Notes under the pieces: generated by a model
The model's input: only the letters and a program-made list of their open reading frames with translations
Database searches by the model: none
What the model was told of the DNA's origin: nothing
Program-made: the position numbers and the translations under genes
In this document: positions 22,783 to 64,000 of the stretch, in pieces
Numbering within the stretch: the stretch's first letter is position 1
Layout: every line of letters begins with the position of its first letter
DNA from: Rhizophagus irregularis
Lineage: Eukaryota
Direction: 5' to 3'
Length of the DNA stretch: 64,000 nucleotides
Assembly: GCF_026210795.1 (NCBI RefSeq)
Contig: NC_089434.1
Location: forward strand, 2,542,001 to 2,606,000

Positions 22783-23080
22783 GGAAAAAGATAAAACTAC
22801 CACCATTCGATTTGTCTCAGTGAGACGATTCTAACAAGCTATGATACATCTTTGTACGATTATTAGATGCCAAGTTATTTAATATATTCTTTATATAACT
22901 GTGATTATAAACGGTTCTTTTTAATATAAGATTTTTGAGGATAGGTGTGATAGTGACTATAGATAGATTGTAACTATATAGGATAGATTTTAATAATAAA
23001 GTGTTTTAAACATTCAACTGGTGTGACTATATAGTAGAATGTGACTATAACGGGAGTGACTATAGAGGGAGTTGACTGTA

Positions 23081-23710
23081 TTTTTATTATTTTGGAATGG
23101 TTTACTAACCGTTCCTTTCTTTTTTTTATAGGTTTGAGTGGGCTTTTATGTGGAAAAATCAAGATTCGTAAGTACGAATCTTGGTTTATTTTTTTTTAAT
23201 TTTTTTTTTAATATTACGAACAGTTATTAATAACCATTCTTTCTTTTTTTTTAGGATCGGGTGGGCTACTGACCTTTGGGAAAAGAGGAACCAAGATTCG
23301 TAAGTATGAATCTTGGTTTATTTTTTTTGATTTTTTTTTTTAATATTAATGAACAGTTACTAATAACCGTTGTTTCTTTTTTTTAGGCTTCAGGTTGGCT
23401 TCCGATCTTCAGAAAAGTGGAACCAAGATTCGTAAATACGAATCTTGGTTTATTTTTTTTGATTTTTTTTTTAATATTATTATGAACAGTTACTAATAAC
23501 CGTTCTTTTCTTTTCTTTTTAGGTCTTGGGTGTCTCAGATGTCTTCCGAAAAATGAAAAAAACCAAAAATTCATAAGTAAGTACGAATCTTGGTTTTTTT
23601 TCTTATTTTTTTTTAATATTATGAACAGTTACTAACCGTTCTTCTCTTTTTTTTATAGGTTTGGGTGGATTGCTAAAGAACAATCAAAGATTCGTATATA
23701 CGAATACATG
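23081..23710 (+). repeat. Continuation of micro-exon/intron array family A
   Basis: Same CCAAGATTCGTAAGTACGAATCTTGG and GAACAGTTACTAATAACCGTTC units. Confidence 0.85.
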
Positions 23711-24938
23711 AATTATATAATTGTGGAATTGTATTTGAATTAGCAATATTTTTTGTAAATTAGATAGATGCAATAATAATAATATAATTATAAAGTATTT
23801 AAGCATTAATAAATACATTTATTTAATAAATTGATAAAAAAAATTAAAATAAATTTATAAATAAATGGGTTGTTATTAGACCATAATTCGGCTTAAAGTT
23901 TTAATGTCGAATATTGGTTAATTTAAGTTTGAATAATGGTCGAATAATTTGTCCAAATTTGGAATGATTGGCACTTTAAATGCGCCTAAAAATTCGACTT
24001 CAATTTGACACAGATTAGATCATCATTCGACTTATATTCGACCTGGTCAAATTTAGGTCGAATTGTCTTTTTTCAACTAGTAAATAGCATAAAACTTTAA
24101 CAATAAAATATAAAAAAGCAAGTCTAATGAAAATTTAGCAAATGCCTATTGGATATTACGCTTAAAATTTAAGTTAGTCAAAATAATTTTTTCATTTATT
24201 CTGGTTGGCAACTAACACAATAATCTTTTTTTTTTTTTTAAATGTTGAATCATGTACTATTTTATTAGAATATATTTGGACTACATAATAATCACAAATA
24301 TTCTATGAATGATACTTCCAGCTCCAGGGCAGTCCGATCAAACATTAGATATTATAACTAACACAATAATCTTCTTCTTCCATTTTTATTAGAATGAGGC
24401 ATTTTCTGCAAAGAGAAATATTAAGATTTGTAAGCGTATTTTCATAGGTAACCATTATTTTCTCATAACTTCTTTCTCATATCTCTAATCGAAGTCTATT
24501 ATAGAATTGGCTAGCAAAGAATTGGCCAACATAAGTTCTTTCTTGTTGAAGTCTATCATAGTTGAATAATATAATAACCTCTAACATGTAGTGAAAATCG
24601 TCCACAAGTAGAGGTTGTAAGCTTTTCGCAATCAGAACAAGGTATACATTTTTTAGCTTTCCAATGGAATCAACATCCTTCAGGCCTAGTACTAGCATTC
24701 TCATAAACCATTTTGATATTGCAGAAAAATGGGCAAGAATATCCACTAATCATCCTACTTTTTTATTACTAAATTCAAAAAGATTAATTAATAATTAGTT
24801 AATGCTTCAGTTTTGCAATAGCTATAAATGCTTTAGAAAGCTTGTAAATACTTATCTTCGGTAGAATTTCTATGATCAAAAAGTGATAGGTACATAAAAA
24901 ATAAATAATTAAAGAAAAAATTATATACAAGTAATAGC

Positions 24939-27570: not shown

Positions 27571-28129
27571 AAGTTTCAAGTTTTCTAAAGATCGATATAA
27601 ATAACCAATCTTTTGGCTTGGTGCTTTTTTATTCCAATTTTTATAATTACGAAAAAAAATTAGTATCTATGAAGTCAAATTCTACTCATTAGCTGAGGCA
27701 CTTTTTTCCTTACGCTTTTGTTTAACTTCTATCTCCTTCTGCAGGTTTAATAGAGTACATCAGGAAATTTTTTGGGGAGCAGATCTGCACAGATCTTATA
27801 CCCTGGCGCAAAACATTAGAGAAAAAATCCAATAAAAAACTGCGCAGATTTTATAAATAACAAAGTTCTGCACAGATTTTTAAATAAAAAACCTTCGAAA
27901 TACCTCAGCAATTTTTTTCAGTAAAAATCTGCGTCACAATAATACAAATTAATTTATTGCATTAATTACTAACTTATTTATATAATCAAAATTACTTTTT
28001 TATTATATATTAATAAGTTTACAAATACAATTGAAATCTATTATTAGTCATTGCTATTCATCATCTCTTTACTGCACATTTACATATTGTTAATGGTTTG
28101 GAACATTGTTCCAGTTGGTTTGATTCCAA

Positions 28130-30090
28130 CAAACAATTAGCAAAATGGAAAAAAAATCTATACAAAAATAAAGAAAAAATGAACATTAGTATAAAGTTCG
28201 TAAAGTTCATTGAAAAAAAAGTAAAAGAAGAATTTCAAAGTAATTACCTTGAATATTACTTTGAAATTTTGTTCAGAAACCCGTCTAAAGTCGTAGAACC
28301 TAAAAAAATTGAACGTTAGTTAACATTCATCAAATAATTTATTAAAAAATAAACTTTTAAAGGTTTTACCTTCAAAAATGAGTCCAGAACTATACCTCAG
28401 TATTCTGGACCTACAAAATATAAAAACGAACGTTAGATAACATTTGTTAAATTAAAAAATATATATAAAAATTAAAGAATTTTAAAGTTTACCTTTGAAA
28501 TTCGCGTCCAAAAAGCCATGGGCCTACAAAACCTATAAAAAAAATACAAATGAAACGTTAGTCAACATTTCACCAAATAAAATTAAAAACTTTCAAAGAT
28601 TATATTTTCAAAATGATGTCCAGAGTACTTTCGGTGTTCTGGACCTACAAAAAATAAAAATGAATATCAGTAAATGTTCGTTAAATAAAATTAAAAAAAA
28701 TAAAAAAATTTTAAATTTTGAAGTTTTACCTTCGAAATTCTGTCTGGAGAGTCAAACCCCTAAAGAAAAAGAGAAAGCTGAAACGTTAGTAATGTTTCGC
28801 TAAAATAAAATAAAAAAAAATAAAAGTATACCTTTGAAATTCTTTTTAGAAGGTATCCGAAATGATGAAGACCTACAAAAAATAGAAACGTTAGTAAACA
28901 TTTCACTAAATAAAAAACATAAAAGAAAGAATTTTGAAGGAATTTTACCTTCGAAATTCTGTCCAGGAGCTGTAAAGTCAAAACCTACAAAAAATAAAAT
29001 GAAGCATTAGTAAACGTTTCATTAAATAAAATCAAAAAAAAATGAAAAAAATTAGTATTTCGATGATAAATACCTTCAAAATTCTATCTTAAAACGGCTG
29101 AAAAGCCGTGGATTTATAAAATAGAATGAAACGTTAGTTAACGTTTTATTAAGTAAAAAGCAATAAAGAAAAGAATTTCAAAGTTTTTTACCTTTGAAAT
29201 TCTGTCCAAATAGGCGATTGGAAAGTCGTGGAAACCTATAAATGAAAAAACCAAAATGTTAGCCAACGTTTCGTTTAAAAAACAAAAACTGTAATTTCGA
29301 AGTTTACTTTCGAAATAATGCACAGAAATCAACATGAGTCAAAGGTAAATACCTTCGAAATTCCGTTGGAAAGCTGCAAACCTAAAAAAAAAGAAATATA
29401 AATGTTAATGAACATTCATTTAAATAAAAAAATTCAAAGGTTAAATTTACCTTCGATTTGGGAATTCAGAACTCAGTTTCAGATTCTTTTGCCTAAAAAA
29501 AAAAGAAACACGAACGTTAGTTAACGTTCGTCAATAAAAATATGAAAAAAAATAAATTTTTTGAAGGGTTTTACCTTCGATATGAGAGTCTGTCAGCTTC
29601 CTTTACCTAAAAAAAAAGTAATATGAACATTAGTTAACGTTCACTAAATAATATTAATAAAATAAAAATCCACTTTTTTTTGAAGTATACCTTCAAAATT
29701 CTTTCGTTCAGGAGCCAGAAAACCAAAGCCCTACAAAAAATAACCAAAACGTTAGTAAACGTTTCGTAAATTAAAAGCAACAGAAAAAAAATATAAAGAA
29801 TTTAGAGGTTTTACCTTCAAAATTCCATCAAGAAGGTTGAAAACCTGCAAAATAAAAAAATTGAAACATTAGACGTTTTGATTAATTTTTAAAATAAAAA
29901 AATAAATATTTTGAAGGTAAATACCTTTGAAATTCTATTCCTAAAAGCTGGAAGTGCCTGCAACCCTACAAAAAAGATAAATAAAACGTTAGTTAACGTT
30001 TTGTTAAGTAAAAAACAATAAAAAAAATTGAATTTCGAAAGTTTCAGTTACCTTCAAAATTCTTCTAAAAATCTCTGAAACCTACAAAAA
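28130..30090 (-). repeat. Tandem micro-exon/intron array, family B
   Basis: Minus-strand units TTCGAAG|GTAAAA(C/T)CTTCGAA ... AAACGTTTACTAACGTTT ... TTTTGTAG|G. Confidence 0.8.
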
Positions 30091-31110
30091 AATTCGAAAG
30101 AAAAAAATTAAAACGGAACATTAACGTTCTGATAAAAAAAAGAATTAAAAAAAATTTTGAAACGTTAAATAATTTTGATAAAAAAAAGTTATTTCAAAAC
30201 ATTTTTAATGTTTCGATAAAAAAATTAAGAAATCAGAACGTTTACAAACGTTCCAATAATAAAAATTAAAAATAATAATAAAAATAAAATTCAAATCGTT
30301 TATTAATATTTCGATAAAAAAATAAATTTCAAAACGTTACTAAACGTTTCGATATAATATTTATAAAAAAATAAATCAAAACGTTAAATAACGTTTCGAT
30401 AAAAATTTTAAAAAAAATATATTTTAAAACGTAAAATAACATTTTGATAAAAAAATTTTTTAAAAAAAATAAATTTCAAAACATTTTTTAACGTTTCAAT
30501 AAAAAAATTAAGAAATCGGAATGTTAGCAAACGTTCTAATAACGAAATTAAGAAATTGGAATGTTAGCAAACGTTCCGATAAAAAAATAAAAAATTTTGA
30601 AATGTTTTTTAACGTTTCGATAAAAAATTAATATATCAGAATGTTAACAAACGTTCTGATAAAAAAAAGACTAAAAATTTGAAACGTTTTTAACGTTTCG
30701 ATAAAGAAATTAAGAAATCAGAACGTTAGAAAACGTTTTGATAAAAAAATAAAAAATTTCGAAATATTTTTAACATTTCGATAAAGAAATTAATATATCA
30801 GAACGTTAACAAATGTTCCAATAAAAAAGGACTAAAAGTTTGAAACGTTTTTAACATTTCGATAAAGAAATTAAGAAATCGGAATGTTTGCTAACGTTCT
30901 GATAAAAAAAATAGAAAATTTCAAAACATTTTTTAACATTTCAATAAAAAATTAATATATCGAAACGTTAAAAATATTTCGATAAAGAAATTAATATATC
31001 GGAACATTAACAAATGTTCCGATAATAAAAGAACTAAAAATTTGAAATGTAAAAACGTTTCAATAAAAAAATTAAGAAATCAGAACGTTAGCAAATGTTT
31101 CAATAAAAAT
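30090..31110. repeat. ~35-40-bp palindromic satellite (GAACGTT-N-AACGTTC-GATAAAAA)
   Basis: More than 20 copies of g(a/g)aacgtt...aacgtt(t/c)cgataaaaa. Confidence 0.85.
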
Positions 31111-32359
31111 AAAAAAAGAAACTTTTTAAAAAGATTAAGTTTTGAAATAGTTTAAATAAATGTCTAAATTTAGCTGATCAACTCACATGACTAATCAGCA
31201 GCTCTTTTCAATTTGCGACATAAAAAAGTTTTAGTATTATAAAAGCGGAAATCTGCAAAATCGCAGATTACCGCAGAATTTTTCTAATAAATCTGCAGAA
31301 ACCTGCAAAATTGCAGATTACCGCAGAAATTCATACATAAAAAATTGGAAACTTGCAAAATTGCAAATTGTTGCATAATTTTGTAAAAAATAAAAAGCAG
31401 AAATCTGCAAAATCGCAAATTTCTGCATAAATTCACAAAAAAAATGTGGAGATCTGCTAATTTTACAGATCTCCGCAGTTCTGCATCTTAAAAAATTTCC
31501 TGATGTATCAAACCTTAGGCGAATTGCAAGGGGATTATCTTCTGGCTTAGTGAGATTAAATACAACAAACTCACCTTTTTGAAGGTAACTATTAATAACC
31601 AGCAATGTATTTTTTACATTATTATAACGTCCAGAAATGTTATTGCGCCATAGTCACGTGATACTGTTCTGGTGCCAGAACACCCTTAACACATATTCTG
31701 ATTTTTTTAGTATAGTAATACCTGATAATTGGATTTGCTTTTTTTCTGCTTTAAAATTCGCTAATCAACATATTGATTTTAGAAATCACACAATGATGTA
31801 ATCCTACATCTTGTACTTGTGATAATTTAAGTACTACTTCTAGCAGGATAATCTTACACACCACCTCACATGTTACGAATATTAATAGTATTGGTTACAC
31901 TGCATAAAGGGTGTGACGTTTTATGTAGGTGACAAATAGAAATCAGACCACAAAAAATTTTCTAAGTCGCTGAGATAAATATAAATAACACGGTCGCTGC
32001 CAGCATAGATAAAAGTCCTGATGATCAGCAGATTACACAAAATTTCATATAGAAATTTCATATGCCGATTAGTAACTTTGTTCATGATAAAATTCCGATT
32101 TGTTATAATAACCCTATTCAAATTTTACGCAATTATTCTTTTCAACTTTCTTTAATGTACTATGTTATTACATCGCAATACATCGCAAACACTTAAAACT
32201 TTACTTTGATGCGTAAATTACAGTTTTGTAAGGTAGCAAAAGAAAGTTAAACCAGGTTTTTTTGGAAGTTATTCGCTAATATATAACCAATAATTATTTA
32301 TTATTTTAATAGTTTCAAATATTGGAAATTAAAGAAAACTACTTTACTAACTATCCATC

Positions 32360-35311: not shown

Positions 35312-36422
35312 CAACAGGGCGGACATGCATTATATCACAATGTCGATCACTTGCCGATCATGATATAAGTGATATCACGTTAAATTTGAAGCTTTATTCT
35401 AAGCAATAAATGTTCTGTTAAATTATTTTATTTAATAGTTTCATTTATCAATAAATTAATATAAAAGTATTGTGGCAAAATAAGGTGTGTTTCCAAAGTT
35501 AGATTTTACATCAAATTTTCAATAATTAATATATATGCTATATATATGCTGATTATCTGCTAACGTGACTTTGAAGCTTTGGGCGAAGCCACAGATCTTC
35601 GGGCGAAACTTGAAACTTTTACAGTATATTATTTAGGTATTCAAGAATCAATGGCTAAAATAAACCTGGATAATTTTTGATAACCCAAAAGTTATCATTA
35701 AATAAATGTTTACAATTATTGTAAAATTAATATATGTCTGATATTTGACAAAATCTTTATGAATTACAGGGCGGACATCCCCATATTATCACGATATTGC
35801 CGATCATTTTGCCGATCACTTGTCCAATATTATCACATAAAAAAATACCGCTGAATTAGTTTTTTCACAAATTCTACATAATAATGTATAAAATTTCGAT
35901 TTTATTTACTTTATTTTATTTATTGTTAATAAATTAGTTCTTAAAATAATTCATAAAGATTTTGTCAAATATCAGACATATATTAATTTTACAATAATTG
36001 TAAACATTTATTTAATGATAACTTTTGGGTTATCAAAAATTATCCAGGTTTATTTTAGCCATTGATTCTTGAATACCTAAATAATATACTGTAAAAGTTT
36101 CAAGTTTCACCGAAGATCTGTGGCTTCGCCCGAAGCTTCAAAGTCACGTTAGCAGATGATCGGCATATATATAGCATATATATTAATTATTGAAAATTTG
36201 ACGTAAAATCTAACTTTGGAAACACACATTATTTTGCCACAATACTTTTATATTAATTTATTGATAAATTAAACTATTAAATAAAATAATTTAACATAAA
36301 TTGTCAGAACATTTATTGCTTGGAATAAAGCTTCAAATTTAACGTGATATCACTTATATCATGATCGGCAAGTGATCGACATTGTGATATAATGCATGTC
36401 CGCCCTGTTGATGTCCGCCCTG
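35312..36422. mobile_element. Foldback element with ~450-bp inverted arms
   Basis: 35312-35765 is the near-perfect reverse complement of ~35949-36410; 10-bp direct repeat TTTATCTATG at 35302-35311 and 36423-36432. Confidence 0.85.
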
Positions 36423-40832: not shown

Positions 40833-42321
40833 TAGAGCTCTGAATTTGACTTGATGGATTGGATGACCTGACGGGTTAACCAGGTCAGGTAGCAGATTTA
40901 ATGACCTGACCTCAAGTCGGGTCAATTACAGTCAGATATCCAACCCGACCCATTGACTTGACATATTTTGGTCATAAATAAGATTTTATATATATAAAAA
41001 ATGCCAACCTGACCTGAATCTGATGTTTTTTCATTAAAAATAATTACAAAAACGTCTTTTTTTATTAAAAATGTCAGGTTCGATTAAAAAACAAAAAAAA
41101 ATGTTTTTTTTATTAAAAAACATTGAACCTGACGTTTTTTATTAAAAGAAACAAAAAAAAATGTTTCTTTAATTAAAAAATGTCAAGTTTGACATTTTTT
41201 TATTAGAAGAAACAAAAAACGTTTCTTTAATTAAAAAACGTCGGGCTTGACATTTTTTCATTAAAAGAAACAAAAAAAATATTTCTTTAATTAAAAAATG
41301 TTAGATTTGACATTCTTTCATTAAAAGAAACAAAAAAAATGTTTCTTTAATTAAAAAACGTCGGGTTTGACATTTTTTCATTAAAAGAAACAAAAAAAAT
41401 GTTTCTTTAATTAAAAAATGTCGAACCTGACATTTTTTTATTAAAAGAAACAAAAAAAAGTTTCTTTAATTAAAAAATGTCGAACCTGACATTTTTTATT
41501 AAAAGAAATAAAAAAAATTGTTTCTTTAATTAAAAAACGACAGGTTTGACATTTTTTTATTAAAAAAAACAAAAAAAATGTTTTTTTTATTAAAAAACAT
41601 CGAACCTGACATTTTTTATTAAAAGAAACAAAAGAAAATGTATTTTTAATTAAAAAATGTTGAACCTGACGTTTTTTATTAAAAGAAACAAAAAAAAATT
41701 GTTTCTTTAATTTAAAAATGTCGGGTTTGACGTTTTTTCATTAAAAGAAATAAAAAAAAAGTTTCTTTAATTTAAAAATGTCAGGTCTGACGTTTTTCAT
41801 TAGAAAAACAAAAAAAATACATTTTGGCGTAATAAAAACTTTACTATCAGTAGTGATTTTTTTGGTAGTATTTTATAATGCTTTTTAAATAATATTAATA
41901 AAAATTTTTGACATATCATGTAAATATCATATTTAATAACATATATATTAATAAGTCTATTATTATTTTTTTACATTTTATTGTAATATGGTATTTTAAT
42001 ATATATTAAATTATAATAGCAATTATATTGTCAATTATTACAAAATATACATTATAGGATTATTATATGGTAATCAAAAAAATAGGCACTGATAGCTAAA
42101 AAGTGCTGAAACGTACTTTTCCATAAAATAATTGTAATATAATTTGATATATTAAAAATGCAGAAATGTTTTTTTGACCCAAAATATACTAGGTCAATGA
42201 GTCAGATCAGGTACCTAAACTGACCTGTAATATTCAGGTCAGGTCACCAAATTCATGACTTGCTTTGGATCAGATCAAGTCAATTAATTATCTAACCTGA
42301 TCTGACCCATTCAGAGCTCTA
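40833..42321. mobile_element. Non-autonomous hAT element with internal ~60-bp tandem repeat
   Basis: TIR TAGAGCTCTGAAT; TSD GGAACTGC / AGAACTGC (7/8 match); tandem repeat at ~41000-41820. Confidence 0.85.
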
Positions 42322-43958: not shown

Positions 43959-46900
43959 CATTGGGAAATTTTTTGGGAAGCAGATCTGCGCAGATTTTCA
44001 GAAATTATATCTGCGCAGATCTTATACCCTGGCGCAAAATATTAAAGGAAAAATCCAATAAAAAACTGCGCAGATTTTATAAATAACAAAGTTCTGCGCA
44101 GATTTTTAAATAAAAAACTTTTGAAATACCTCAGCAATTTTTTTCAGTAAAAATCTGCATCACAATAATACAAATTAATTTATTGCATTAATTACTAATT
44201 TATTTATAATCAAAATTACTTTTTTATTATATATTAACAAGTTTACAAATACAATTGAAATCTATTACTAGTCATTGCTATTTATCATCTCTTTACTGCA
44301 CATTTACATGTTGTTAATAGTTTGGACATTGTTCCAGTTGGTTCGATTCCAACAAACAACAAAATAAAATAGAAAATCGGAGATGTTTATTAGAAATAAG
44401 AAAATTATTTCAAAGTTATTACTTTCGAAATGTTTGACACGAAATCTCAGGATCTAAAAAATAAAGTAAAATGAACGTTAGTAGAACGTTCGTTAAAGAA
44501 GAATAAAAAAAAAATTATAAAGAATTTTGAAGATATACCTTCAAATTCTTTCGTCCAGGAGCCAGAGAAAAAAACCCTACAGAAAAAAACAACTGAAACG
44601 TTAGTAAACGTTTCGCAAATTAAAAAATATGAAAGAATTTCGAAGGAATTTTACCTTCAAAATTCCGTCCAGAAGCCGTAAACCTGCAAAAAGTAAAAAG
44701 AAAAGACAAACAAAAGGTTAGTAAATGTTTTGTTAAACATTAAAAAAAAATTAATTTCGAAGGTAAATACCTTCAAAATCCTGAAAAAATCTCCAAGTCT
44801 AGTTCGTCTAAAGAAGCCCGGCGTTCTTATATAAAGAAGAAAGAACGTTAGAAACGTTCTTTAAAAAAAAAAATAAATTTTAAAGTTTCGCAACTCTTAT
44901 TGCGAAACTTACCATTTACCCGTTTTAGGAACCTTGGAGTACTGAAATCTACAACAAAAAAGAAAACGAAATGTTAGCTAACATTTCGTTTAAATAAAAA
45001 CAAAAAAAACAGAATTTCGAAGGTTACCTTCGAAATTCTGTTCAGGAGCGTCCAGAGAGCTGTGTTCCTACAAAATACAAAAACGAACGTTAGAAAACAC
45101 TTCGTTAAGTATAATTATTAAAAAAAATTTTTTTCAAAGGTTTTACCTTCAATATGGGAGACTGAACTCATTTTCGACTTCCTTTACCTAAAAAAAATAA
45201 AATACGAACGTTAGTTAACGTTTGTTTAAATAAAAAGAAAAAAAAAATTTGAAGGTTTTACCTTCGATATGGGAGCTCAGAATTCATTTTTGGATTCCCT
45301 TGCCTAAAAAAAAAGTAATACGAATGTTAGTTAACGTTTGTCAATAAATTAAATAAAAAAAATTTTTTTTTATGAAGATTTTACCTTTGTATGGGAAAAC
45401 TTTCGTATGGGAGTCCAAGTTTCCGGCTTCCTTTATTTAAAAAAAAAGGAAATATGAACGTTAGTTACGTTTGTCAATAAATTAAATAAAAAAAATTTTT
45501 TTTTACGAAGATTTTACCTTCGTATGGGAAAACTTTCGTATGGGAATCCAAGTTTTCGGCTTCTTTTATCTAAAAAAAAAGGAAATACGAATGTTAGTTA
45601 CGTTTGTCAATAAATAAAAAAGAAAAAAAAATTTTGAAGGTTTTACCTTCGATATGGAAGTCCAGAACTCGTTTTCAGATTCCTTTGCCTAAAAAAAAAG
45701 AGATGAAACGTTAGAAACGTTTTGTCAATAAATTAATTAAAAAAAAATTAATTTTTGAAGGTTTGTTTTACCTTCGATATGGAAGTCCAGAACTTGTTTC
45801 GGCTTCCTTTATCTGAAAAAAAAGAAATGAAACGTTATAAACTGAACGTTTCGTTAATAAATTAATTAAAAGAAATAATTTGAAAGTTTTACCATCAAAC
45901 AGAATTTTCAAATGGGTCCAGAACATACCTTCAGTGTTCTGGACCTATAAAATACAAAAATGAACGAAACTAACGTTCGTTAAAGTTAAATTATAAAAAA
46001 AATATTTCAAAGATTTTTACCTTCGAAATAAATGTCCGGAGCCATTCTTCGGTGTCCAGGACTTATAAATATAAAAACGAACGTTAATTAATGTTCGTTA
46101 AACAAAAATATAAAAAAAAAATTTGAAGGTAAAACCTTTACCTTCAACTAACGTTTGTTAAAGTTAAATTATAAAAAAAATATTTCGAAGATTTTTACCT
46201 TGAAATAAATGTCCGACCATTCTTGGTTGTCAGGACTTATAAATATAAAAACGAACGTTAATTAATGTTCGTTAAACAAAAATATAAAAAAAAAATTTGA
46301 AGGTAAAACCTTTACCTTCAACTAACGTTTGTTAAAGTTAAATTATAAAAAAAAATATTTCGAAAATTTTTACCTTCGAAATAAACGTCTGGAGCCATTC
46401 TTGGCGCCCAGGACCTAAAAATATGAAAAAGCGAATGTTAATTAATGTTCATTGAAATAAAATTAAAAAAATATTTCAAAGGTAAACTTTACCTTTGAAA
46501 TAAACGTTTGGAGCCATTCTTTGGCATCCAGGACCTATAAAACGTAAAAACGAATATTAATTAACGTTCGTTAAATAAAATTAAAAAATATATTTCGAAG
46601 GTTAACTTTACCTTCGAAATAAACGTCCGGAGCCGTTCTTTGGCATCCAGGACCTATAAAATATAAAAACGAACGTAACTAATGTTCATTAAAGCTAAAT
46701 TATAAAAAAAATATTTTGAAGATTTTTACCTTCAAAATAAATGTCCAGAGCCGTTCTTCAATACCCAGAACCTAAAAACATGAAAAATGAACGTTAATTA
46801 ACGTTCGTTGAAATAAAATTAAAAAAATATTTTGAAGGTAAACTTTACCTTCAAAATAAACGTCCGGAGCCGTTCTTTGGCATCCAGGACCTATAAAATG

Positions 46901-47582
46901 TAAAAACGAACGTTAATTAACGTTCATTAAAATAAAATTAAAAAAATATTTCAAATATAAACTTTACCTTCGAAATAAACATCTGGAGTTGTTCTTCAGC
47001 GTCCAGAACCTAAAAACATGAAAAACGAACGTTAATTAACGTTTGTTGAAATAAAATTAAAAAAAAAATATTTCAAAGGTAAACTTTACCTTCGAAATAA
47101 ACGTCTAGAGCCATTCTTTGGCGCCTAGGACCTAAAAACATGAAAAATGAACATTAGCGATATTACGTGTTGTAGAAAAATTATTTTTTAAAGTCTTGTA
47201 AAATTTTTTTTTTTAAAAAGTATTGTAAAAAAAATCATTTAGGTATTAAATCAAGTTAGAGTTAATTAAAGTTTAAATGATGAAATTGCAGATCGAACTG
47301 ATATTTTAATGAAAAAAAAGCAAATATTTGCAAAATTGCAGACTTCCGCATAAATTTCATATAAAAAAAAGCAGAAATCTGCAAAATCACAGACTTTCTG
47401 CAGAAATGCATACATAAAAAATCAGAAACATGCAAAATTGCAGATTATTGCATAACTTTGTAAAAAATAAAAAGTGAAAATCTGCAAAATTGCAGACTTC
47501 CGCATAAATTCACAAAAAAAATGCGGAGATCTGCTAATTTTACAGATCTCTGCAGTTCTGCATCTTAAAAAATTTCCTGATG
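43959..47582. mobile_element. Second copy of the CAT...ATG 2-bp-TSD element with family B array (44400-47160, minus strand)
   Basis: Termini cattgggaaatttttt / aaaaaatttcctgatg; TSD CT; excision restores the ATPase Walker A. Confidence 0.9.
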
Positions 47583-49512: not shown

Positions 49513-50620
49513 TCATTTATCTGTTTCATCTTCTGTTTCCGGTGATTCTTCTACTCCCATTGGTTCTGATTTTTCCATTCCCGTTAGTTCTGAATCTTCT
49601 ATTACAACTATTTCGTCTATTTCTGCTGACACTTCCGCATCTTCTGCCATTATTAGATTCTTCATCGTTTGAATTGGCATTTCCAACTCAGAAAAGTCAG
49701 TATCGGCCAGCATATTCTGCTCCACATAGGTCCAATTTGGAGCACCTCGTAGATGACGAGAGACGATATTATATATCTCATCATCATAATTTCACATTCG
49801 TATCAATTGTGCAGATTGAAGAGAGAAAGCGTATTATTCCAAGACATTTCGTAATAAATCTATTAACTATTATTAGAAAAAAAATCAATCCTATTACGAA
49901 AAAAATAAAATAAATAAAAAATAAAAAATAAAAAATGCGACAAATAAGTTATCGAACCTCTTCAGATCTCCAAGACGGATTATAAACATTGATATGTCTT
50001 TTACCGTCTGGTTGCTCCTCATCTGATTCAGAATACTCTGGAGAGTGATATCGGTTGTCACTTAAAGTTCTTATCGATCATAATTCTCCAGTTTTTCATC
50101 ATTTTTGTCGAAAAGCGATTTTACGCCTTTAACTCGATGTGCCTTTTTCTATATTTAAAGTTTTGACAAATGATGAGATTTTTTTTTTTGAAATAATAAA
50201 GAAATTATTTACCTCATTTAACTGATTGTTTTGATGTAGACGGTGATTATCTTTGTCTAAAGTGCCACGTTGTTTATATAACAAGTGCACTCTGCGATGT
50301 TTATATAAAGCGGAGAGCCAAGATTTGACTTGCCTGTATTGTGAAGTATACCTTGGCTTTATTGCTTCAATTAGTCGAGGTATAACCTGTTGAAGAATTT
50401 TATCATTCAACTCACTGGTAAACTTTTCATCGTATTTTAATTCTAGTTCAATCAGAAAAGTTTTTAGAATCGTCTTCATCTTGGCCTAAATTGTACAAAA
50501 TATCAGTTTAGCGAACGTTAAAAGCATACATTGAAAGAGGATTTTTGGATGAACCCTGGCTTCTTCTTCATCTACTTCCATTTCATCTTCAGAATCGCGC
50601 ACAAGATTTTTTCCTTTCCT
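49513..50620 (-). pseudogene. Intron-containing accessory gene typical of fungal CACTA elements
   Basis: Exons give VKSWLSALYKHRR...NQLNE|KKARRVKG...YHSPEYSESDEE...NPSWRSEE; CACTG terminus candidate at 48579. Confidence 0.45.
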
Positions 50621-50727
50621 ACACTTTGTTGGTTGTTAATCCTCTTTAAATTCGATATCTTGAAGGTCAGATGAATGTCAGTGACACAAGCGATCATTTT
50701 CCTGACTAAGTATATTGTTATACGATT

Positions 50728-53465
50728 CACTAGTCGAAATAAGGCAAATCAGAAATAAGGCAAATCGTCCTTATTTCGGCTAAATTTCGGCTAATAATTG
50801 ACGATCGTCTGTATATCAGGTGACATTTGGCATAGCCGATTTCCGATTTCACTAGTCAAAAAAGGCCAGCTTATATTCAATTAAAAATTCAACTATGATC
50901 TACGATTAGACATTGGTCGAATAGTCTAATTAAACGTCACATGTTACGCGTATCAAAGTTTAAAAAAGGATCTTTTTTAAACTTTCCCCTTTCATCCCTT
51001 CCTTTCACTTCACTTCGTCCCTATTTTCCCCTGTCCTTTCGTCCTTCCTCTCCCTTCCCCTATTATCCTTTCCTTTCCCTTTCGTCCTTCCTTGCTTCCC
51101 TTTCACTCTCCCCCTTTTCTCACACCTTTCTTCCGCCTCTTTTTCTTGGAAGTAATGTAAGTTTCATTTCGAAACTTACATATTTTTTTTTTAATTTTTT
51201 TTTTTTAATTTAAGAAATGAATTTCTTTATATTGTTTTTTTTTGTAGGATGCCAGCTTTAACACAAAACTGGACTTTAAGGTAAAAAATGGGAAAGTGAA
51301 GTTTTGTTAATTTAAGAAACGAACTAATGTTTCTTTTCATTATTTTTTTTTGTAGGACGCATAGGAGGACGCCGGCTTTAACACAAAACCGGACTTTAAG
51401 GTAAAAAATGGGGAAAGGGGGAAGGGGAAAAGGATTTAAAACCAAGATTCTTAAGAATCTTAGTTTTTATTTTTTTTAATATTTCAGAACGGTTACTAAC
51501 CGTTCCTTTCTTTTTTATAGATTTCGGGCAGGCTTCCTAGTTCCGAAGAATGGAAAAGAACCAAGATTCGTAAGTAAACGAATCTTGGTTTAATTTTTTT
51601 TGTTTTTTTTTGTAATATTAATGAACGGTTACTAATAACCGTTTTTTCTTTATTATTTTAGGTTCGGGTTGACTTCTGAGTTCCGAAGAACAGAAAGAAC
51701 CAAGTTTTGTAAGTACAAGTACGAAACTTGGTTTATTTTTTATTTTATTTTTTTTCCTATTATATGAATGGTTACTAACCGTTCCTTTCTTTTTCTTATA
51801 GGTTCAGCCGTTTGGGTGAGTTTCTGAAGAACGGAAAAAAACTAAGATTATGTACTACGAATCTTGGTTTTTTTCTTCTTTTTTTAATATTTGGAATGGT
51901 TATTACTAACCGTTCTTCTTCTTTTATTTTTTATAGGTTCGGTGTCTCAGGAGGGGCTTCCGAGTTCCGAAGAACAGAAAAAAAACCAAGATTTGTAAGT
52001 ATATATAAATCATGGTTTTAATTTTGTTTTTTTTTAATTTTATTAATGAACGGTTACTAATAACCGTTTTTTCTTTTTTTAGGTTTGCGAGTTCTGAAGA
52101 ATGGAAAAGAACCAAGATTCATAAGTATATACGAATCTTGGTTTTAATTTTTTTGTTTTGTTTAACTTTATTAATGAACGGTTACTAATAACCGTTCTTT
52201 TCTTTTTTTAGGTTCAGGTGGGCTTCCGATCTTTGGAAAAAGTGGAACCAAGATTCGTAAGTAAGTACGAATCTTGGTTTAATTTTTTTTATTATTATTA
52301 TTATGAATGGTTACTAATAACCATTCTTTTCTTTTTTTTAGGATCGGGTGGATTTTTGAATTCTGAAGTACGGAAAAGAACCAAGATTCGTAAGTATATA
52401 CGAATCTTGGTTTAATTTTTTTTATTATTATTATTATGAACGGTTACTAATAACCGTTCTTTTTTAGGATCAGGTGGATTTTTGAATTCTGAAGTACAGA
52501 AAAGAACCAAGATTCGTAAGTATATACGAATCTTGGTTTAATTTATTATTATTATTATTATGAACGGTTACTAATAACCGTTCTTTTCTTTTTTTTAGGA
52601 TCGGGTGGATTTTCAAATTCCGAAGTATGGAAAAGAACCAAGATTCGTAAGTATATACGAATCTTGGTTTTGTTTTTGTTTTTTTTTTATTATTTGGAAC
52701 GGTTTACTAACTGTTCCTTTCTTTTATTTTTTAGGTTTCAGGTTGAATTCCGAAGATCGGAAGAAAAGGAACCAAGATTCGTAAGTAAGTACGAATCTTA
52801 ATTTATTTTTTATTTTTATTTTTTATTATTTTGGAACGGGTACTAACCGTTCCTTTCTTTTATTTTATAGGTTCGGGTGGACTTTCAAGTTCCGGAGAAC
52901 GGAAAAAGATTAAGATTCGTAGGTATATACAAATCTTGGTTAAATTTTTTTTATTAATATTAATGAACGGTTACTAATAACCGTTCTTTTCTTTTTTTTA
53001 TAGATTTGGGTGGATTTCCGACGAATGGATGAACTAAAACCAAGATTCGTAAGTACGAATCATGGTTTATTTTATTATTATTATTTTATTATATTTTTGA
53101 ATTAGAAATATTTATTTGTAATTTAGATAGATGCTAATAATAATAATGTAATTATAAAGTTTTTAAGCATTTAATTAATAAATACATTTAATAAATTTGA
53201 TAATAAAAATTGAAATAAATTCAGAAAAAAATAGTCTGATTTTTGTCCGATTTAAGTTCTGAAGTACATCTGATTGACTGTCCGAATTTAGTATGATTTA
53301 ATTCTGATTTATGTCCGATTTAAGTTCCGAAGTACATCTGATTGGCAGTCAATCGGATAACAATCGGAATATATTTTTTTTGTAAAAATCAGATATATTT
53401 CAGCCGTAATTTGACCTAAAATCGGATATCCGATTTTTAGCCAATTTGCCTTATTTCGACTAGTG
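50728..53465. mobile_element. Non-autonomous CACTA element carrying micro-exon/intron array family A (51150-53070, plus strand)
   Basis: 22-bp TIR CACTAGTCGAAATAAGGCAAAT; TSD ATT at 50725-50727 and 53466-53468. Confidence 0.95.
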
Positions 53466-53609
53466 ATTGTAATTGGCCAATGTCTAGCCATAGGTCACGC
53501 AACTCGCCATTTGCATTATCGAGTTGCCAATTTAATTCATTGATTCTTTCCCGTAAGTAGGTATTTTCTTCTCAGAGATCATACGTATCTAAAAAAACGT
53601 TAAAGTCGA

Positions 53610-54290
53610 CTAGAACTCTAAAATGAATACAAAAGTCAATTGTAGCTCACCATTTACATCTCTAGTCCAATTACTACTATAAGGTTCACATATAATTGGC
53701 GTTAATTCTCTCCTATATGGTTCGGCAGTGCGTACATTGCTTCTATACGGTTTGGCAATGCGTACATTGCTCCTATATGGTTCGGTAGTGTGTGTAATGG
53801 ATGTTAATTCCCTATGTATATTGCTCCTATACAGTTCGGTGGTGTGTGTAATGGACGTTAATTCCCTATGTACATTGCTCCTATACGGTTTGGCTGTGCG
53901 TGTAATAGTCATTAATTTCCTATGTACAGTTACATTACGAATTGGTAGTACCATCCTGCTTTGTTGCGAGTATAAGCTGAATGGTACCACTAAGCGAAAT
54001 GGCTTATTATCTTCTGAAGCTTCTGATATTGACATTTATTTTTGAGTTTTGGTAGAACTGAAACCAGAAGCTGCAGATTCCTGTTTTGACACTTGTTTTT
54101 GAGTTTTGGTAAAACCAGAACTGAAAGCTGCGGATTCCTGTTTCAATGCTTATTTTTGAGTTTTGATAGAACTGGAACTGGAAGCTGCAGATTGTTGTTT
54201 CGATATCGATATTTGTTTGGAAGAATCGGAACTTACAAATTCCTGTGAAGAAGTTTGTTTGTGAGACTCTTGACGACTTTTTCGACACTT
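53610..54290 (-). pseudogene. Repeat-rich ORF of unknown function with two in-frame stops
   Basis: One frame reads KQ(Q/E)SAA...KTQK x3 then HRELTSITHTTEPYRSNV repeats; TAA stands where the sister repeat has CAA. Confidence 0.45.
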
Positions 54291-56837: not shown

Positions 56838-56979
56838 GTGACCAGTAGTAACTCTCTCCTGAATTTTTCAAAAACGAAAATTTCTGACGAAAATAATTTT
56901 TTTATTATTTTTAAAAAAATAATACAAGCTACTAATAAAATTTTATATTTTATATATTCCCAACTCAAAGCCCTCTACT

Positions 56980-59107
56980 ATGTCTGGTAACTATGCCAAG
57001 AGAGGCCGTGGAAGTCATAACCCTAACAGTAGGAAAGCTTCCCGTCAAGAACGAAAAAATAATAATAACTCCGATAACTCAAGCTCTGATGGCGAAAACA
57101 CTATCCAGCAAAAGCGTAATCGTACATTTACCGAAAATTCTATGGAAGAAGACTACGTTGCCGATGACCAGACGGCTGACGTTGGAGTAGATGGACTTTC
57201 CTCTTCTCCTCAACAAAATATCTCTGGCGAAAATACTTCAACCTCCTCCCTGAAAAAATCTGCTGCGCCAACTGCACCCAGTCACGTCGCGTCTTCTGGA
57301 AATGTGGACGCGTCCATGCATGCACCTTTAAACAAAGACTTGCAACAACCCCCTAATGCGTCACCCAATTTGGATACCAATGGTGCTCCAGATGATGATC
57401 AAACTCCAGATCCAGTGGTGACCCTCGCCATAACCAGAGATGATTTTCAGGCTGCGGCTGCGCCGAATGCTGCCCCTGAATCTCTTAAGAAATTCCCTAC
57501 CAATAAAGCCCTTATTGAGGCTGTTAATAACCTTTTTTTAGAAACTTACGAGTCTTTTACTGGAAAAGCACGTATGACTGGCTCTGGTGAAGCCAAACGC
57601 CTCGTTATCCACTTCCATACCGCTGAAGCACGCGATTTGTGCGTTGGTTCCACTCATCCTGAATTCCTTGACTTAATCTTTTATGCACATGACCTTCGCC
57701 AACTCCGATCTAATAAAGATCTCCGGGCTATCCAAGTTACTGATATCCCTTTCTTCATTAAAAAAGACAACCTCATGGCTTATTTTAAAAAATTTGGTAA
57801 TATCACCTCTTGCCGCCTCTTCTCCAGGCCTAATGCCAAAGTCCAGCAAGCCCGCATTGTGTATGATCACGCCGATTCAATTGCTCGTTTTACTGACCAA
57901 TAGGCCGTGTACAGTGTACTGTTTCTCCACCTGCCTCAGAATTACTCCATGTTTCTATACTGTGGATCAAAAGGCTGCGCGCCGTCAATACGTTGCCACC
58001 CTCACTCAACTTCCTCCCAATGTTAAGGATATCAACTTGGCTCCTCTTACCCGTAACCTTGGCGCTAAGGCTGTCAATGTTCCACTTTTTTTAAATTCTT
58101 ACAAACCCAAAAGATGGGCTTACGTCACCTTTAACTCCCAAGAAACCATGGATGCTGCTATGGAACAGACTGTCAGCTTCCAAGGCAAAGTGCTTTTCTG
58201 GTCCTTCCCAGATAATACCAATAAACTTTGTCACAGATGTGGCAAATTAGGTTGCGCTCCAAATTTTTGCCCACTTAAACAAACCAGAGGTAGAAGTCGC
58301 ACTCGCGACCCTGTAGCAAAACTCAAAGAACGATTTAATGTCAATCAACCTCGCCGCTCCAATTCTAATGCTGCTAATACACGTTCTCACTCCCGATCTC
58401 GCTCAAAATCCAAAGATCGATCTACTACGATTCCGGACGTGCTAATAACAGTTCTCATGACCGCAATAATAATGTTAATAATCATAACATACACAATCCC
58501 AATACCTCCCAACGTGCTCGGCATAATAGCAAAGAACAATCAGTCTCTTTTTCTTCCTCTTCTCGTTCTACCGCACGTCCCTTGCCCCGACAAACTCCTA
58601 ATTCTGCATTATCTTCTGATGATGCTAATAATATTTTAAATCTCTTACGTGAATTGCAATGCGAAGTCGCTAATTTTCACAAACGCATTTCCGCTTCGAA
58701 CTTGCTGACCAAAGGATGACTCATATTGAATCACACCTTGGCCTTGATCCGCTTTCTACACCTAATGAACCTGACTTGGATCTCATGCAAGAAGATGCTC
58801 CTATATCTCATGTTCCGCTTATTATTCAGCCTTCCGCTAAATCTCCTTTACCCCCAGAAGTATTTTAACGCGACCTCCGCCTCCTACTATTCTTGTTCCT
58901 AACACGTCGCCCCCTCCTTCTCACCTTTTCCCAAATGCTCCTTCTTTTACCCCTATCTCCTCCACGCAAGAAGAAATTAACGATCTCAAAAATAGTAGAG
59001 TCGTTATTGAAAGTAAATTGGACCAACTCACTGGTCATATCAAACAATTCATTAGCTCCATTGGTGGTGCTCCCCTGGAACAAGCTGATTCAGCTTCTTC
59101 TGTTTAA
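56980..59107 (+). pseudogene. LINE ORF1: RRM-like domains plus zinc knuckle
   Basis: IQVTDIPFFIKKDNLMAYFKKFGNI, WAYVTF, CHRCGKLG; RS-rich tail; stop at 57901 and frameshifts. Confidence 0.85.
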
Positions 59108-59157
59108 TTTTCTTCTTCAAATTTTAACTCCCCGACTGTTTTTATCATCGTGTTTTA

Positions 59158-62100
59158 ATGTCAGACAATAATTTTAATTATGATACCTTTGTACGAAACC
59201 CTCCCAACCCCGATAATGTTACTGAAATTTTTTCACATGAATCCTTATTTTCTTCTTCTAGTAACACTTCTCCTATCCCTAACTCATTTAATATTTCCTC
59301 CTTCAATGTTAATGGCCTTAAAATGTATGGTCAGACTAAATTAGAAGAAATTTCTTCTTTTTTCTCCTTAAAACATATTTCCTTTGGTGGTATCGTTGAT
59401 ACTCATCTCCACCCTAAACAAATGAAGTTTTTATCCAAATGTCTTTCTAATTATACTGTGTTTTCCTCGAATTTGGATACTTCTAAACAAATTCTTTCTT
59501 CTTGGTGTTTCCTTTTTATAGAAAATTCTCGCTTCATACGTACAAGATTTTAAATTCCATTCTTCACGACTGCTTTCTGTTGATTTATATTTCAAAGGCA
59601 ATGTTAAATTGCGTATATTTGTTATTTATATCCCTCCCCCTGCTGAAAGTATTTTGCGCACTGATACTATTGATTTGCTTATTCAACAACTTATCCTTTC
59701 TAAACAAGCTGGTTTTTATCATGCTGTTTGTGGCGATTTTAATATGCATTTAGATAAATATTATCCTATTTATTTTAATCAACCCCAAATTGCTTCAAAA
59801 CATATACATCGACTACTTTTTCATCTCCTTTCTCATGGTTATAAAGATTTTACACCTATTAATCTTTCTGACTCTTTAGGTACCTTTCATCGCAATGACC
59901 ACGTTACTCGTGTTGATTATGTATGGTCCTGCCCTCTTCTCAAAGGATTTGCTCTTACTGCTTGTATTTTTAATGCTCAAGACATCTGCACATCTGATCA
60001 TAACCCTGTCATCACATATTATGATATGTCTTTACTTTTTGCCTCTACCAAATTGGCTCGCGCTCGTCAACTTAAGCGCCAAACCCGTCGCGTCTTCAAA
60101 TTTGATTCTGTAACTGATACTCAATGGACGGAATTCGCTGACAAAGCTGATGCTTTATGTGATGTTTCACCTTCAACCTTTTCCTCCTGGCATATCAACC
60201 AAATGTGCGAATATCTTCAATCACGAATCCTCAAAGCTGCCAACGCTACTTTACCTTCTTCTATTGTTGGCAACAATTACACTCCTAAGGTCCCTAAAGA
60301 TCTCGAAATTTTAACTCAACATTATTGGTTTTTAAATCGCCTAATGCATTCGATACGTTTATTGCGCAAATATCCTTTAACTTATTCTGTTGTTCATGAA
60401 CATAAGTGGTCTATACATTTGCATAGACTTCAAAACATTCTTCAATTATACAAAAAAGTCTTTACTTTCATTCCTACTTTGCCCTCTTCTCTCTCATCAT
60501 GTCGACAAGACAATTTCAAGTCACTTCTTGATGATTTCTCCCATATTTCAAAATGCTTACGGGATTTCATTTACTTCAAGAAAAAGAATTCCAAGACTCC
60601 TCCATCCGTGCTCACTTGGACGATAGGAATAATAATTTTGAAACTGACCTTTCCTCCTTTATTGATTCAGCGCTTTCTCGCACCCGTCGCCGTATCACTT
60701 TGGACCGTGTCTTCATCGATCATCCTACTCAACCTCAGTTGCTAACTGATCCTAAGGACATAGATGATGCTGTTGTTAACCATTTCCAAAATTTTGTACC
60801 TATAAAGTCCACTCTTCCTGTATCTATTGATACACTACCTGATAGATGGTCTTCTGCCTATCAACCTATGGATGATGTGTCCTCCTCCATCTATGATTCT
60901 TTAATGAATCCCCCTACCCTTGATGAATGGTTATCCACCGTTTCTTCTACTCCTAACGGTAAAGCCTCTGGTCCTTCCATGATTACCTATGAAATGCTCA
61001 AACATCTCGGATCTCGTACCTCGGCTTTACTCCTCATTTTAATTCAAGCATGCCTTTCCAAAGCTGATATTCCTGACTTATGGTGACAAGCAATGGTTTT
61101 TCCCATCCCCAAACCTCACGAATGGAAGTGTCAATTAAAAAATACTCGCCCTATTACCCTACTTGAAGTGATTAGGAAATCTCTTGTCAAACTTTTTTAT
61201 AATCGCCTTTCTACCATTATGGCTTCACATGATGTCCCTAAAGGTGGTAACTTCGCTGGTCTTCCTGGAGGTTCTTGTTCTTTGCGAACCCTATTATTAC
61301 TTTAGAATCTATTATCCATGATGCTGATATCAACAAAAACCCACTTTGGATTCTTTTCCAAGATATTTCTAAAGCTTTTGATTCAGTTGATCTAACGATG
61401 TTACGTTTCGCTTTAGAACGTATACGTCTTCCAGCCTCCGCTGTTAAGTTTATCCTTTCCCTTTTATGAAACGCACTAATCGCGTTTTCACCTGCTCATG
61501 GATCTACGCCTGCCTATAGGGTTCGCATTGGTATTGACCAAGGCGAAGTTATTTCTCCTCTTTTATGGGTCATTTATATTGATCCCTTACTTACTATTCT
61601 GAAGAATGAGATGATGGACCCTTATGTTCTTTCTACACCGTCTTTAATTGATTCTTCAAGCTGCTCTTGATTTGAAGATTAATAATTTAGTATTTATGGA
61701 TGACTCTACTCTTATTTCCTCGTCAAAAGCTGGCATGGAATTTATGTTATCCATTACTGAAGAATTTTATCAGATCAATAACACTTCTGCCAATCATAAC
61801 AAATATGTGTTAATCACTAATTCGTTGCCTTTGACTCCGAATTCCACTTTATCCCCTATCACTTTTAATTTGGATTTATCCTCTTTAAATAGTGTTCCTT
61901 CCATTACTATTACCCCAATTTCCATGACAACTTCTTTTCGTTTTTTAGGTGTTTGGTTTAACATTAAGAGCTCCCATGATTTTGTCAAGAAGCAACTCAA
62001 ACGTGAATGCTGCTCCTTTGCTGCGACCATCCGACCCGCAAAGCTCTCTTCTAAACAAGTCGTGTATTTATATAATGCTGTTCTTGTACCAAAACTTGAA

Positions 62101-64000
62101 TATCGGATGCAAGTTACCCACTTGTCTGAATCTGAATGCCACCTAATAACGAGAAGTATACGATCCGTTGTAAAGCACAAAGCGAACTTTTCTCGTTTTT
62201 TACCCAACCCCATTCTATTTTTGTCCCAAGCTTTGGGCTTGATTAATTTGTTCGCTCATCAACGACAATGTCATATTACTAATTTATTTTTAATGGCTAA
62301 TTCTTCTTCTTCTTTTATTCAATCTCTTTTTATTTACAGATTGTGTTTAATTCAATATAATTTTTTGATTCCTATTTCTCCTTTATTAATTAAGGACTGG
62401 TCTATATGGTCTTCTTTATTTTCTTTTAAGAAAGATTATATCGCATGCACTATTGCTCTTCTAACTTCTACTCCCTTTCGTTTGCTTCATACTCAACTTT
62501 TGAAGCTTCCAAATTTATCCCTACCAGATGGATGCGTTCCTTTATTCGAATGCACGACGCCTAAAGCCTTTAAAGCTTATTTCCCCATTTTGCGAAACGA
62601 CAACTGTTTTATTTATCTCAACTTGTTACTCCTCAAGGAACTCATTTAATTTCTTGGAAGGCTTATTATGACAATTTGGTTGGACGACGTGGCCCTGGCC
62701 GTATCCCTTATTGGTACAAAGATATTCAACAAGTTACCACTATTTCTGACTCCAACAATCGTCTGCTGGATCATTTCACTATTACGCCCAAGATTGTCTC
62801 TTCATCTTATGAATTGGCTCCCTGTTCATCCTCTCCTTCTACTACAAAAATTGGATTGTCACGTTGGACGATTATGGTTCTCCCATCTTTGGCAAACAAC
62901 TCTTGGTCCAAACAAGTCGTGTACTTGTTCTATTGTTCACTGGATTTCTCCTGATTGCGAATCTTCGCCTGGCGATCTCATTAGACTCTCTCCTTGCCCT
63001 GGTTGCGCTGCTTCATACTCCTTTGCCTCCTTCCAAAAAACGGAATGCTGATTTAACCCTTTGTACGCCTACGGTCTCTCTACAACATTCGCTTATTTTG
63101 CCCACTACTAATGAACGAATTAGACGTACTACTTCTGAAGTGGCTTCACCTTTTACTTGGGCTGATATAGAAGATGGTGTCCGTCTTTATTATAGTAGAT
63201 TGGATTTTGATTCCGATTCTTCTTCTGCAGATACCGTTATAGTCTCTAATACTCCGCTCACAATTGAATCCTCGGCTGCTGCTGTCTTTGCAAATTCCCC
63301 GTTGGTCGTTTCCTCGATTCGTGCTATACCTTTTTCTTTTACGCTGATGGGTCTCTTATTAATTTAGGCACTCCCGATGTCTCTATGGGCTGGTCTTGGA
63401 TGCAAATAGTCCCTGATGCAGGTTTTCCTAACTCCATCGCCACTTATGCTCATGGCCTTATACGAGATAATCTCTCTTCTTCTCGAGCTGAGGCTGCTGC
63501 TATATATGCAGTTTTAACTATTTCTCCACGCGACTCAGAAGTTACTATTTATACTGACTCACAAACTGCCATTGATGGCCTTCGAAGTTGTTCTTCTTTT
63601 GTCTACTCAAACAGTCGTCTGTACTACAAAACTACAAATTTTGAGCTTTGGGCGATTATTGAGCGAACCATCCTTTCCAAAAATCTGACAGTTTTTCCTG
63701 TTAAAGTTAAAGCTCACTCCGGCAATTATTTAAACGATTTTGCTGATTCCTTGGCCAATACTGCCCATACCGCGTCATCTAGTATTCTGATCTCCGGAAT
63801 GGACCTGGCCTCTGCTCATGATTTTGTCTTAGTGTATGATAACGATGTTGTTTGTGAATCTAATCCGCGACACCTTCTCAAACTATATTATCAAACGCAG
63901 TTAATGCGTGATTTGTTAAATTTAACGCGTTTTCACTTCACTTCTTTATTGACATCTAATATAGATTATATTATTGACTGGAAATTACTTGGTTTACTTT
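59158..64000 (+). pseudogene. LINE ORF2: APE, RT, RNase H (multiple frameshifts)
   Basis: FNVNGL, GDFN, RVDYVW, SDH; RPITLL, DISKAFD, QGEVISP, FMDD, FLGV; YADGS, RAE, YTDS, KVKAH, ADSLA. Confidence 0.95.

Follow-up and report, generated by a model that had tools for sequence, protein, structure and literature searches.

At positions 50728 to 53465 of the 64-kb window (the whole stretch of Rhizophagus irregularis DNA analysed here) lies a CACTA-type element of 2,738 bp, in which 22 of 22 terminal bases, starting CACTA, are identical between the two ends. CACTA (CMC-EnSpm) transposons are characterized by terminal inverted repeats (TIRs) that begin CACTA, a 3-bp target-site duplication and subterminal repeats near both ends, all of which are found here: ATT flanks the element on both sides, and two short motifs recur in both orientations at 50736-50849 and 53246-53457. 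No transposase-size open reading frame (ORF) is present inside the element, its sole stop-free stretch of at least 100 amino acids being the low-complexity leader. Among 17 ORFs of the window, Pfam recognized no transposase family. The element is a non-autonomous CACTA-type (CMC-EnSpm) DNA transposon, non-autonomous because it encodes no transposase, in agreement with the first-pass annotation, which had described an intact CACTA element lacking one. Its parts are as follows.

50725-50727 (no strand): left target-site duplication ATT, from the sequence
50728-50749 (+): left TIR, 22 bp, CACTA start, 22/22 identical to the right end
50736-50849 (no strand): left subterminal region, short motifs repeated in both orientations, from motif positions
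50850-50865 (+): second, inner CACTA-type end, resembling the left end of related copies (window position 6145 and locus L006)
50975-51156 (+): pyrimidine-rich leader, predicted first exon, from the sequence
51157-53126 (+): array of 14 micro-exons (33-58 nt) and 15 intron-like segments, from sequence and folding
51157, 51281, 51401, 51570, 51709, 51852, 51995, 52121 (AT), 52257, 52390, 52516, 52647, 52781, 52919 and 53049 (+): donors of the array, from the sequence
52212-52262 (+): exon 8 with two overlapping donors (52257, 52261), site of exon-exon joints in paralogous RNA reads
52379-52412 (+): example donor hairpin, a 14-bp stem spanning the exon-intron boundary (-20.2 kcal/mol, z -8.8)
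52438-52459 (+): example branch-point hairpin (-11.3 kcal/mol, z -5.5)
53127-53230 (+): A+T-rich tail, predicted last exon, with four AATAAA (53177-53219), 88% like 23734-23866
53444-53465 (-): right TIR, with 22-bp identity to the left end
53466-53468 (no strand): right target-site duplication ATT, from the sequence

The inner CACTA-type end (50850-50865) starts 122 bp in from the left terminus, and it may be that the left end as it now stands was rebuilt or extended; the related copy L006 aligns with the focal element over 50879-51256 at 74%.

The donor positions of the array are spaced by 120-169 nt, and its last acceptor is uncertain in position (53103-53130). Its introns carry U2-type signals (GT donor, YTRAY branch motif, pyrimidine tract and AG). 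The first-pass description of about 14 tandem exon-plus-intron units between a pyrimidine-rich leader and an AATAAA-containing tail is borne out, with 14 internal exons of 33-58 nt, and every coordinate of its worked example is exact: exon 52342-52389 (48 nt), GTAAGT at 52390, donor stem 52379-52412, branch hairpin 52438-52459 and AG at 52466-52467. It overlooked a second donor 4 nt downstream of the first, present at 11 of 14 exon ends and used in RNA. Donor 52121 of the focal array has mutated to AT; across the units of its family (family 1), GT stands at the first or second donor position in 49 of 54.

The accompanying claim that each donor and each branch point lies in a hairpin stands for 13 of 15 donors and 13 of 14 branch regions. 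Compared with dinucleotide shuffles, these donor windows reach z values of -3.8 to -9.8 and these branch windows -2.6 to -6.3; the claim fails at donors 51281 and 51401 (both GTAAAA) and at the branch region of intron 1, where folding against shuffles gave no significant hairpin, and none was located at the branch of the last intron in the focal array. Donor-like sites fold at -5 kcal/mol or below in 71 of 86 cases within arrays versus 30 of 143 elsewhere in the window, and branch-like sites in 52 of 81 versus 25 of 230, a comparison of related units rather than an independent sample, so that P values overstate it. The folding models argue that the hairpins over the splice signals are not chance. 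Searching Rfam with the array returned four weak matches (25-27 bits against gathering cut-offs of 58.7-100) and no known structured RNA; scanning the TIR and the donor hairpin against viral contigs gave no match.

Reads from three polyA RNA-seq runs and one further run bearing the same species label (at most three samples from two studies, about a quarter of each run) were mapped to 50300-53900 at 88% likeness. Only 316 of the 4,543 mapped reads are at least 99% alike and most are 90-95% alike, so that most come from paralogous copies. At the predicted donor of exon 8 (after 52256), at least 64 reads (33 + 31) continue directly into the first bases of a family exon, and at the second donor (after 52260, a GT 4 nt downstream) at least 73 reads (27 + 23 + 23) do so, giving at least 137 reads with exon-exon joints over the two donors, found in all four runs; these counts are from the matches listed, 15 of 72 joint rows, five of which leave exon 8 into a family exon. 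Rows that land at 51822 carry inserted letters agreeing with the exon at 23523 at 19 of 21 bases. In the paralogous array of the window, this exon lies behind an exon-8-like exon, separated from it by a 91-nt GT-AG intron (23432-23522); those reads therefore represent the paralogue arrangement minus its intron. A search of genomic copies for an exon end joined to an exon start, a partial stand-in for a control on DNA sequencing runs, found none in the window or in four fungal loci (59 candidate exon ends). Family-1 introns are excised in vivo at two alternative donors, in paralogous copies.

Joints at the predicted donors, which the first-pass annotation had proposed looking for in RNA, exist for the family at the level of at least 64 reads, and its view of a multiply spliced non-coding transcript stands for family copies, in which no frame is kept; the splicing of the focal copy itself lies outside that result. 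Among the matches listed (15 of 72 joint rows), with reads mostly 90-95% alike, none skips the focal copy's own introns from GT to AG, and read depth over its leader is no greater than over the flanks. Mate directions are equal, and the strand is thus known from junctions alone. At 51159, three bases into intron 1, 30 reads of run X24 depart from the leader, all with the same continuation, which may be an alternative second exon or a different paralogue.

Intron-containing reads are also present. At least 85 reads (four listed rows) run from exon 8 into the intron, whether from unspliced RNA or as background; coverage over intron positions is deep, several loose read ends cross unspliced acceptors and flank depth is 1-2. 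Given the many copies, this flank depth and the greater difficulty of mapping short spliced exons, read counts are no measure of splicing efficiency. The many intron-containing polyA reads, background though they may be, would suit a reading in which RNA stalled on the spliceosome feeds SCANR-like RNAi, making the elements host-useful sources of small RNAs against their own families. According to the available part of PMC5851062, SCANR targets inefficiently spliced transposon RNA, and, as far as the available part of PMC8647823 reports, small-RNA-producing genes of R. irregularis mostly lack a known domain, and 41% of loci carry no annotation, the classes into which the arrays would fall. At exon 8, however, spliced joints (at least 137) stand against at least 85 listed unspliced reads, reads without a joint being uncounted, and selection on the element that spreads the array would work against such a trap. 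We consider this reading quite unlikely; of the two functions that the first-pass annotation had put forward, seeding of siRNA is the weaker, since the array would then damage the very element that harbours and multiplies it.

The array product is non-coding. In 155 database gene models of arrays, which splice at both donors and which, being predictions, are no independent proof of splicing, the three reading frames are used about equally (528:529:450) and 120 of the 155 use all three, which marks the product as non-coding; together with the mixed exon phases, these figures confirm the earlier statement that no frame is kept. A real family of repetitive basic proteins translated from alternatively spliced exons might be suspected from the at least 140 clusters of annotated 'hypothetical proteins' that match the arrays, and from a longest methionine-initiated ORF of up to 147 amino acids in some isoforms. 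Yet the median of that longest ORF over 1,024 donor combinations of the focal copy is 59 amino acids, the exon lengths of the focal array cover all three phases, family-2 exons contain stops at the chance rate and the clusters are mostly single sequences, so that a protein family is very improbable. Junction peptides only account for 119 of 152 proteins, with 11 mixed, 2 reading introns and 20 neither, and Pfam gave no match in 13 of 14 models searched; in the remaining one, the array is fused to a Harbinger DDE domain. The 20 proteins looked up, and a further 14 + 7 database matches, are all named Rhizophagus irregularis; P0150 is identical letter for letter to several exons of the focal copy. 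Translations of these arrays inflate orphan-gene counts in R. irregularis, a model mycorrhizal fungus.

Avoidance of stop codons as a design for escaping NMD was considered and rejected: family 2 shows none, and the strong signal that families 1 and 3 give against single-base shuffles is not upheld against dinucleotide shuffles (15 stops versus 18.8 +/- 2.5; 47/500), and in the same test the antisense strand gives 12 versus the 15 observed.

The array architecture is met eight times in this one 64-kb window, in three kinds of element; copies beyond the focal one include:

6145-8609 (+): family-1 element with left end, leader and array, broken by nested insertions, from the sequence
23080-24082 (+): family-1 array, tail and decayed right end, holding the exon pair (intron 23432-23522) joined in RNA, from sequence and reads
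3976-4762 (-): family-2 element with TAGTG ends and an 8-bp duplication, alike in architecture and other in sequence, from the sequence
8610-14081 (-): second family-2 element, 8-bp duplication, interrupted by a further insertion, from the sequence
27758-31505 (-): family-3 element, 16-bp TIR, 2-bp duplication TA, array with diverged exons, from the sequence
43959-47582 (-): second family-3 element, 16-bp TIR, 2-bp duplication CT, from the sequence

Family 2, with its TAGTG ends and 8-bp duplication, we take to be hAT-like. In all three families the exon end or donor pairs with an antisense copy lying downstream and the branch motif with one lying upstream, and introns measure about 70-95 nt; the unit sequences differ while order, spacing and double hairpin are alike. 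Family-3 exons are largely unalike, and the branch hairpins of the families share a short core, from which one remote ancestor of the three unit types may be conjectured. At locus L001, family-1 units precede a family-3 tail (53 nt at 98% and 94%), a chimera that points to exchange of arrays between backbones. Six metagenome loci comprised four fungal-type arrays and two G+C-rich chance matches, and both matches in the genome collection were chance.

Several other features of these copies were observed. In L006 (- strand, at about 660-760 of the reverse complement), no intron separates the first short exon from a later exon type, which we interpret as a deletion or intron loss in that copy. 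At L005, 1443-1707, the family-1 units are followed by introns of other sequence with a hairpin starting at the donor, like intron 1 (51157). On the 5' side of the first family-3 element, 30150-31100 (-) holds 48- and 81-nt tandem palindrome units that resemble branch hairpins, without clear donors or AG, and that are possibly a DNA-level precursor or derivative of the array. Two small inverted-repeat insertions (7470-7625 and 7790-8090) are nested in the family-1 array; the family-2 element at 8610 is inserted exactly in a donor hairpin of a family-1 array; and a 3.7-kb insertion (9570-13250) lies in a family-2 array, with a C2H2 ORF at 12242-12949 on the opposite strand. Within that insertion, 9957-11937 has no Pfam match and is presumably a broken transposase-like gene.

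Leader, array and polyA-like tail make up a complete transcription unit, as they would if the array were the multi-exon UTR of an autonomous parent's transposase transcript, with hairpins throttling output, inherited after loss of the ORF. CACTA transposase transcripts are multi-exonic, and splicing is regulated elsewhere by concealed branch sites, as described in the accessible text of PMC11162794. Against such an inheritance, seven longer database models and P0015 join the array to unrelated partners, among them a reverse transcriptase/RNase H protein, a Harbinger DDE domain and a protein that we take to be Plavaka-like, which makes nested insertion likelier than one parent; window copies with both ends all lack an ORF of their own. 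A UTR would, on the other hand, leave no trace in proteins. On balance, we regard inheritance from a parental UTR as somewhat unlikely.

How the signals have been kept was followed across copies. All 51 family-1 units (12 different loops) carry the branch motif at the apex of the hairpin, as do 31 of the 34 family-3 units (17 loops); the 34 remained once 21 of 55 candidates, being donor hairpins or broken units, had been set aside, and the filter used for family 3 holds the two A's fixed. An AG follows the pyrimidine tract in 51 of 51 units of family 1, 10 of 10 of family 2 and 26 of 34 of family 3. Family-1 donors (n = 54, from a search that favoured the donor motif, 5 of 59 candidates having been dropped as false or disrupted) retain positions +2 to +5 at 94-100%, and the loop beyond takes 16 forms. 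At the +1 G, part of a CpG, 6 of 54 have A, and 8 of 54 have T in place of its partner C. The conservation comparison that the first-pass annotation had suggested thus comes out in two parts: branch motif and AG are invariant in family 1 (51/51) while loops vary, but the donor G decays like its CpG partner.

Of 592 donor-stem cells, 92.9% are paired, and double changes number 29 versus 8.3 in shuffles; covarying pairs (4 of 12), one of which may owe its signal to the alignment of A/T runs, are not above shuffles (245/500). G-U and A-C pairs are equally common, at 14:12 in 51 branch stems and 23:22 in donor stems (the latter from a scan with some false matches), so nothing in the stems marks the RNA strand, and the palindromes may be kept at the RNA or the DNA level. 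Across the unit types, then, the grammar of the introns is old and has been maintained, with neutral decay of individual copies.

These data bear on a neutral origin, in which one captured exon-intron unit was amplified in tandem and its palindromes were perfected at the DNA level, through template switching or as protein binding sites, with splicing incidental. Watson-Crick stems without a G-U excess, a donor G that decays like any CpG, hairpins that fold on the antisense strand as well and arrays that grow by tandem duplication are all as such an origin would have them. It accounts less readily for three unit sequences that share one order, one spacing (introns of about 70-95 nt) and a double hairpin, for a branch motif kept while loops vary and for signals that persist while family-3 exons diverge; moreover, candidate ordinary donors picked by eye (7 or 8, one of them mis-picked) fold weakly, at -1.0 to -5.4 kcal/mol. 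We judge a purely neutral satellite unlikely.

We propose instead that the spliced, non-coding array of the focal element is a gene-mimicking, spliceosome-loading cassette that aids escape from silencing, a reading to which we give a probability of roughly 40%; the description on which it builds, namely that a CACTA-type element carries a spliced, non-coding array, we hold with high confidence. Near each splice signal lies an antisense copy with which it is predicted to pair; recognition by U1 and U2 would then be slower, the RNA would stay longer on the spliceosome and part of the splicing would shift to the downstream donor. Copies that resemble intron-rich host genes might more often remain free of methylation and accessible to transposase. 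For a cut-and-paste element the ends suffice, and a 2-kb cassette kept in three backbones has therefore probably been favoured. The best reading of a complete transcription unit that is non-coding, dense in introns and present in three backbones is that it serves the element. The precedents, as far as the available parts of the two reports go, are that introns counteract HUSH silencing even without splicing (PMC8770142) and that intronless alleles are poorly expressed in Cryptococcus (PMC5851062); together with the unit's presence in three backbones, they favour gene mimicry. That hairpins over splice signals inhibit their use, which the consulted portion of PMC11162794 reports, fits mimicry awkwardly and fits stalling as well. 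The array copies are themselves CpG-decayed, so the cassette would confer no lasting protection. We know of no HUSH-like intron sensing in R. irregularis.

A broader version, in which the array is an exchangeable 'spliceosome decoy' cassette spread across several superfamilies and selected at the transposon level against intron-based surveillance, is more tentative and, in our estimate, slightly less probable than the mimicry reading itself. If true, it would be the first element-borne countermeasure of that kind, and it would mean that the fungus tells self from non-self by splicing. The arrays make it testable with public data whether transposons exploit splicing-based self recognition.

Comparison with known systems sets the element apart. 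The CMC-EnSpm (CACTA, including Plavaka) superfamily has been reported in R. irregularis, according to the portions available of PMC8647823 and PMC11075540. The focal element is like other non-autonomous CACTA elements in its CACTA-start TIRs, 3-bp duplication, subterminal repeats and lack of a transposase, whereas its interior is a spliced array of 14 micro-exons with hairpinned signals rather than a deleted ORF or a captured gene piece. The curated library of PMC11075540, in the text available, distinguishes domain-bearing elements of 1-17 kb from MITEs, which have TIRs, lack a transposase and measure 50 bp to 1 kb; at 2.7 kb and without transposase, the element falls between the two classes, and its 2,738 bp exclude it from the MITEs so defined. 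About two thirds of R. irregularis repeats are unclassified by the same partial account, and the array is a recognizable architecture within them.

Introners are single mobile introns, structured and linked to transposition, that are dispersed in host genes. Here, by contrast, the introns are tandem cargo inside one element bounded by TIRs and a duplication, and the mobile unit is the whole 2.7 kb, which excludes introner identity. Transposon-derived lncRNAs of Blumeria hordei, as presented in the available text of PMC10648671, are likewise spliced, non-coding and fungal; most of them run antisense to transposon genes, their exons number 2.3 on average and fewer than 1.9% have more than 5, whereas here about 15 exons in a tandem array make up the element's whole cargo. 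In HUSH and SCANR (PMC8770142 and PMC5851062, each in the portion consulted), splicing status decides the silencing of mobile-element RNA; both are host surveillance systems, whereas the array is element-borne, and no element-borne cassette exploiting or feeding intron-based surveillance was found in the literature searched. Stem-loops that conceal branch sites also place the branch point in a hairpin, but in the accessible part of PMC11162794 they are single regulatory structures in host genes, while in nearly every unit of this mobile array one hairpin holds the donor and another the branch point.

A spliced micro-exon array in a DNA transposon is apparently undescribed. As the first-pass annotation had supposed, no paper on this architecture was found in a full-text search of mainly open-access articles; supplements and repeat libraries may contain consensus sequences of such elements without remark. 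The word 'hairpin' is absent from the main text, as available, of the mycorrhizal transposon papers PMC13465315, PMC11952901 and PMC8647823.

Elsewhere in the window, 12 copies of a 60-nt unit with an 8-10-bp hairpin occupy 41083-41818, in an element-like stretch with repeated subterminal motifs and no clear exon-intron grammar. A fold-back of about 1.1 kb at 35312-36410, with arms 96-99% complementary, is a candidate small-RNA source. A weak FANCF match at 947-1402 (-) has an E value of 0.0034, below the curated cut-off. Two stretches, 15117-20552 and 56923-64000, carry endonuclease, reverse transcriptase and RNase H-like ORFs and are, we assume, decayed LINE-like retroelements.
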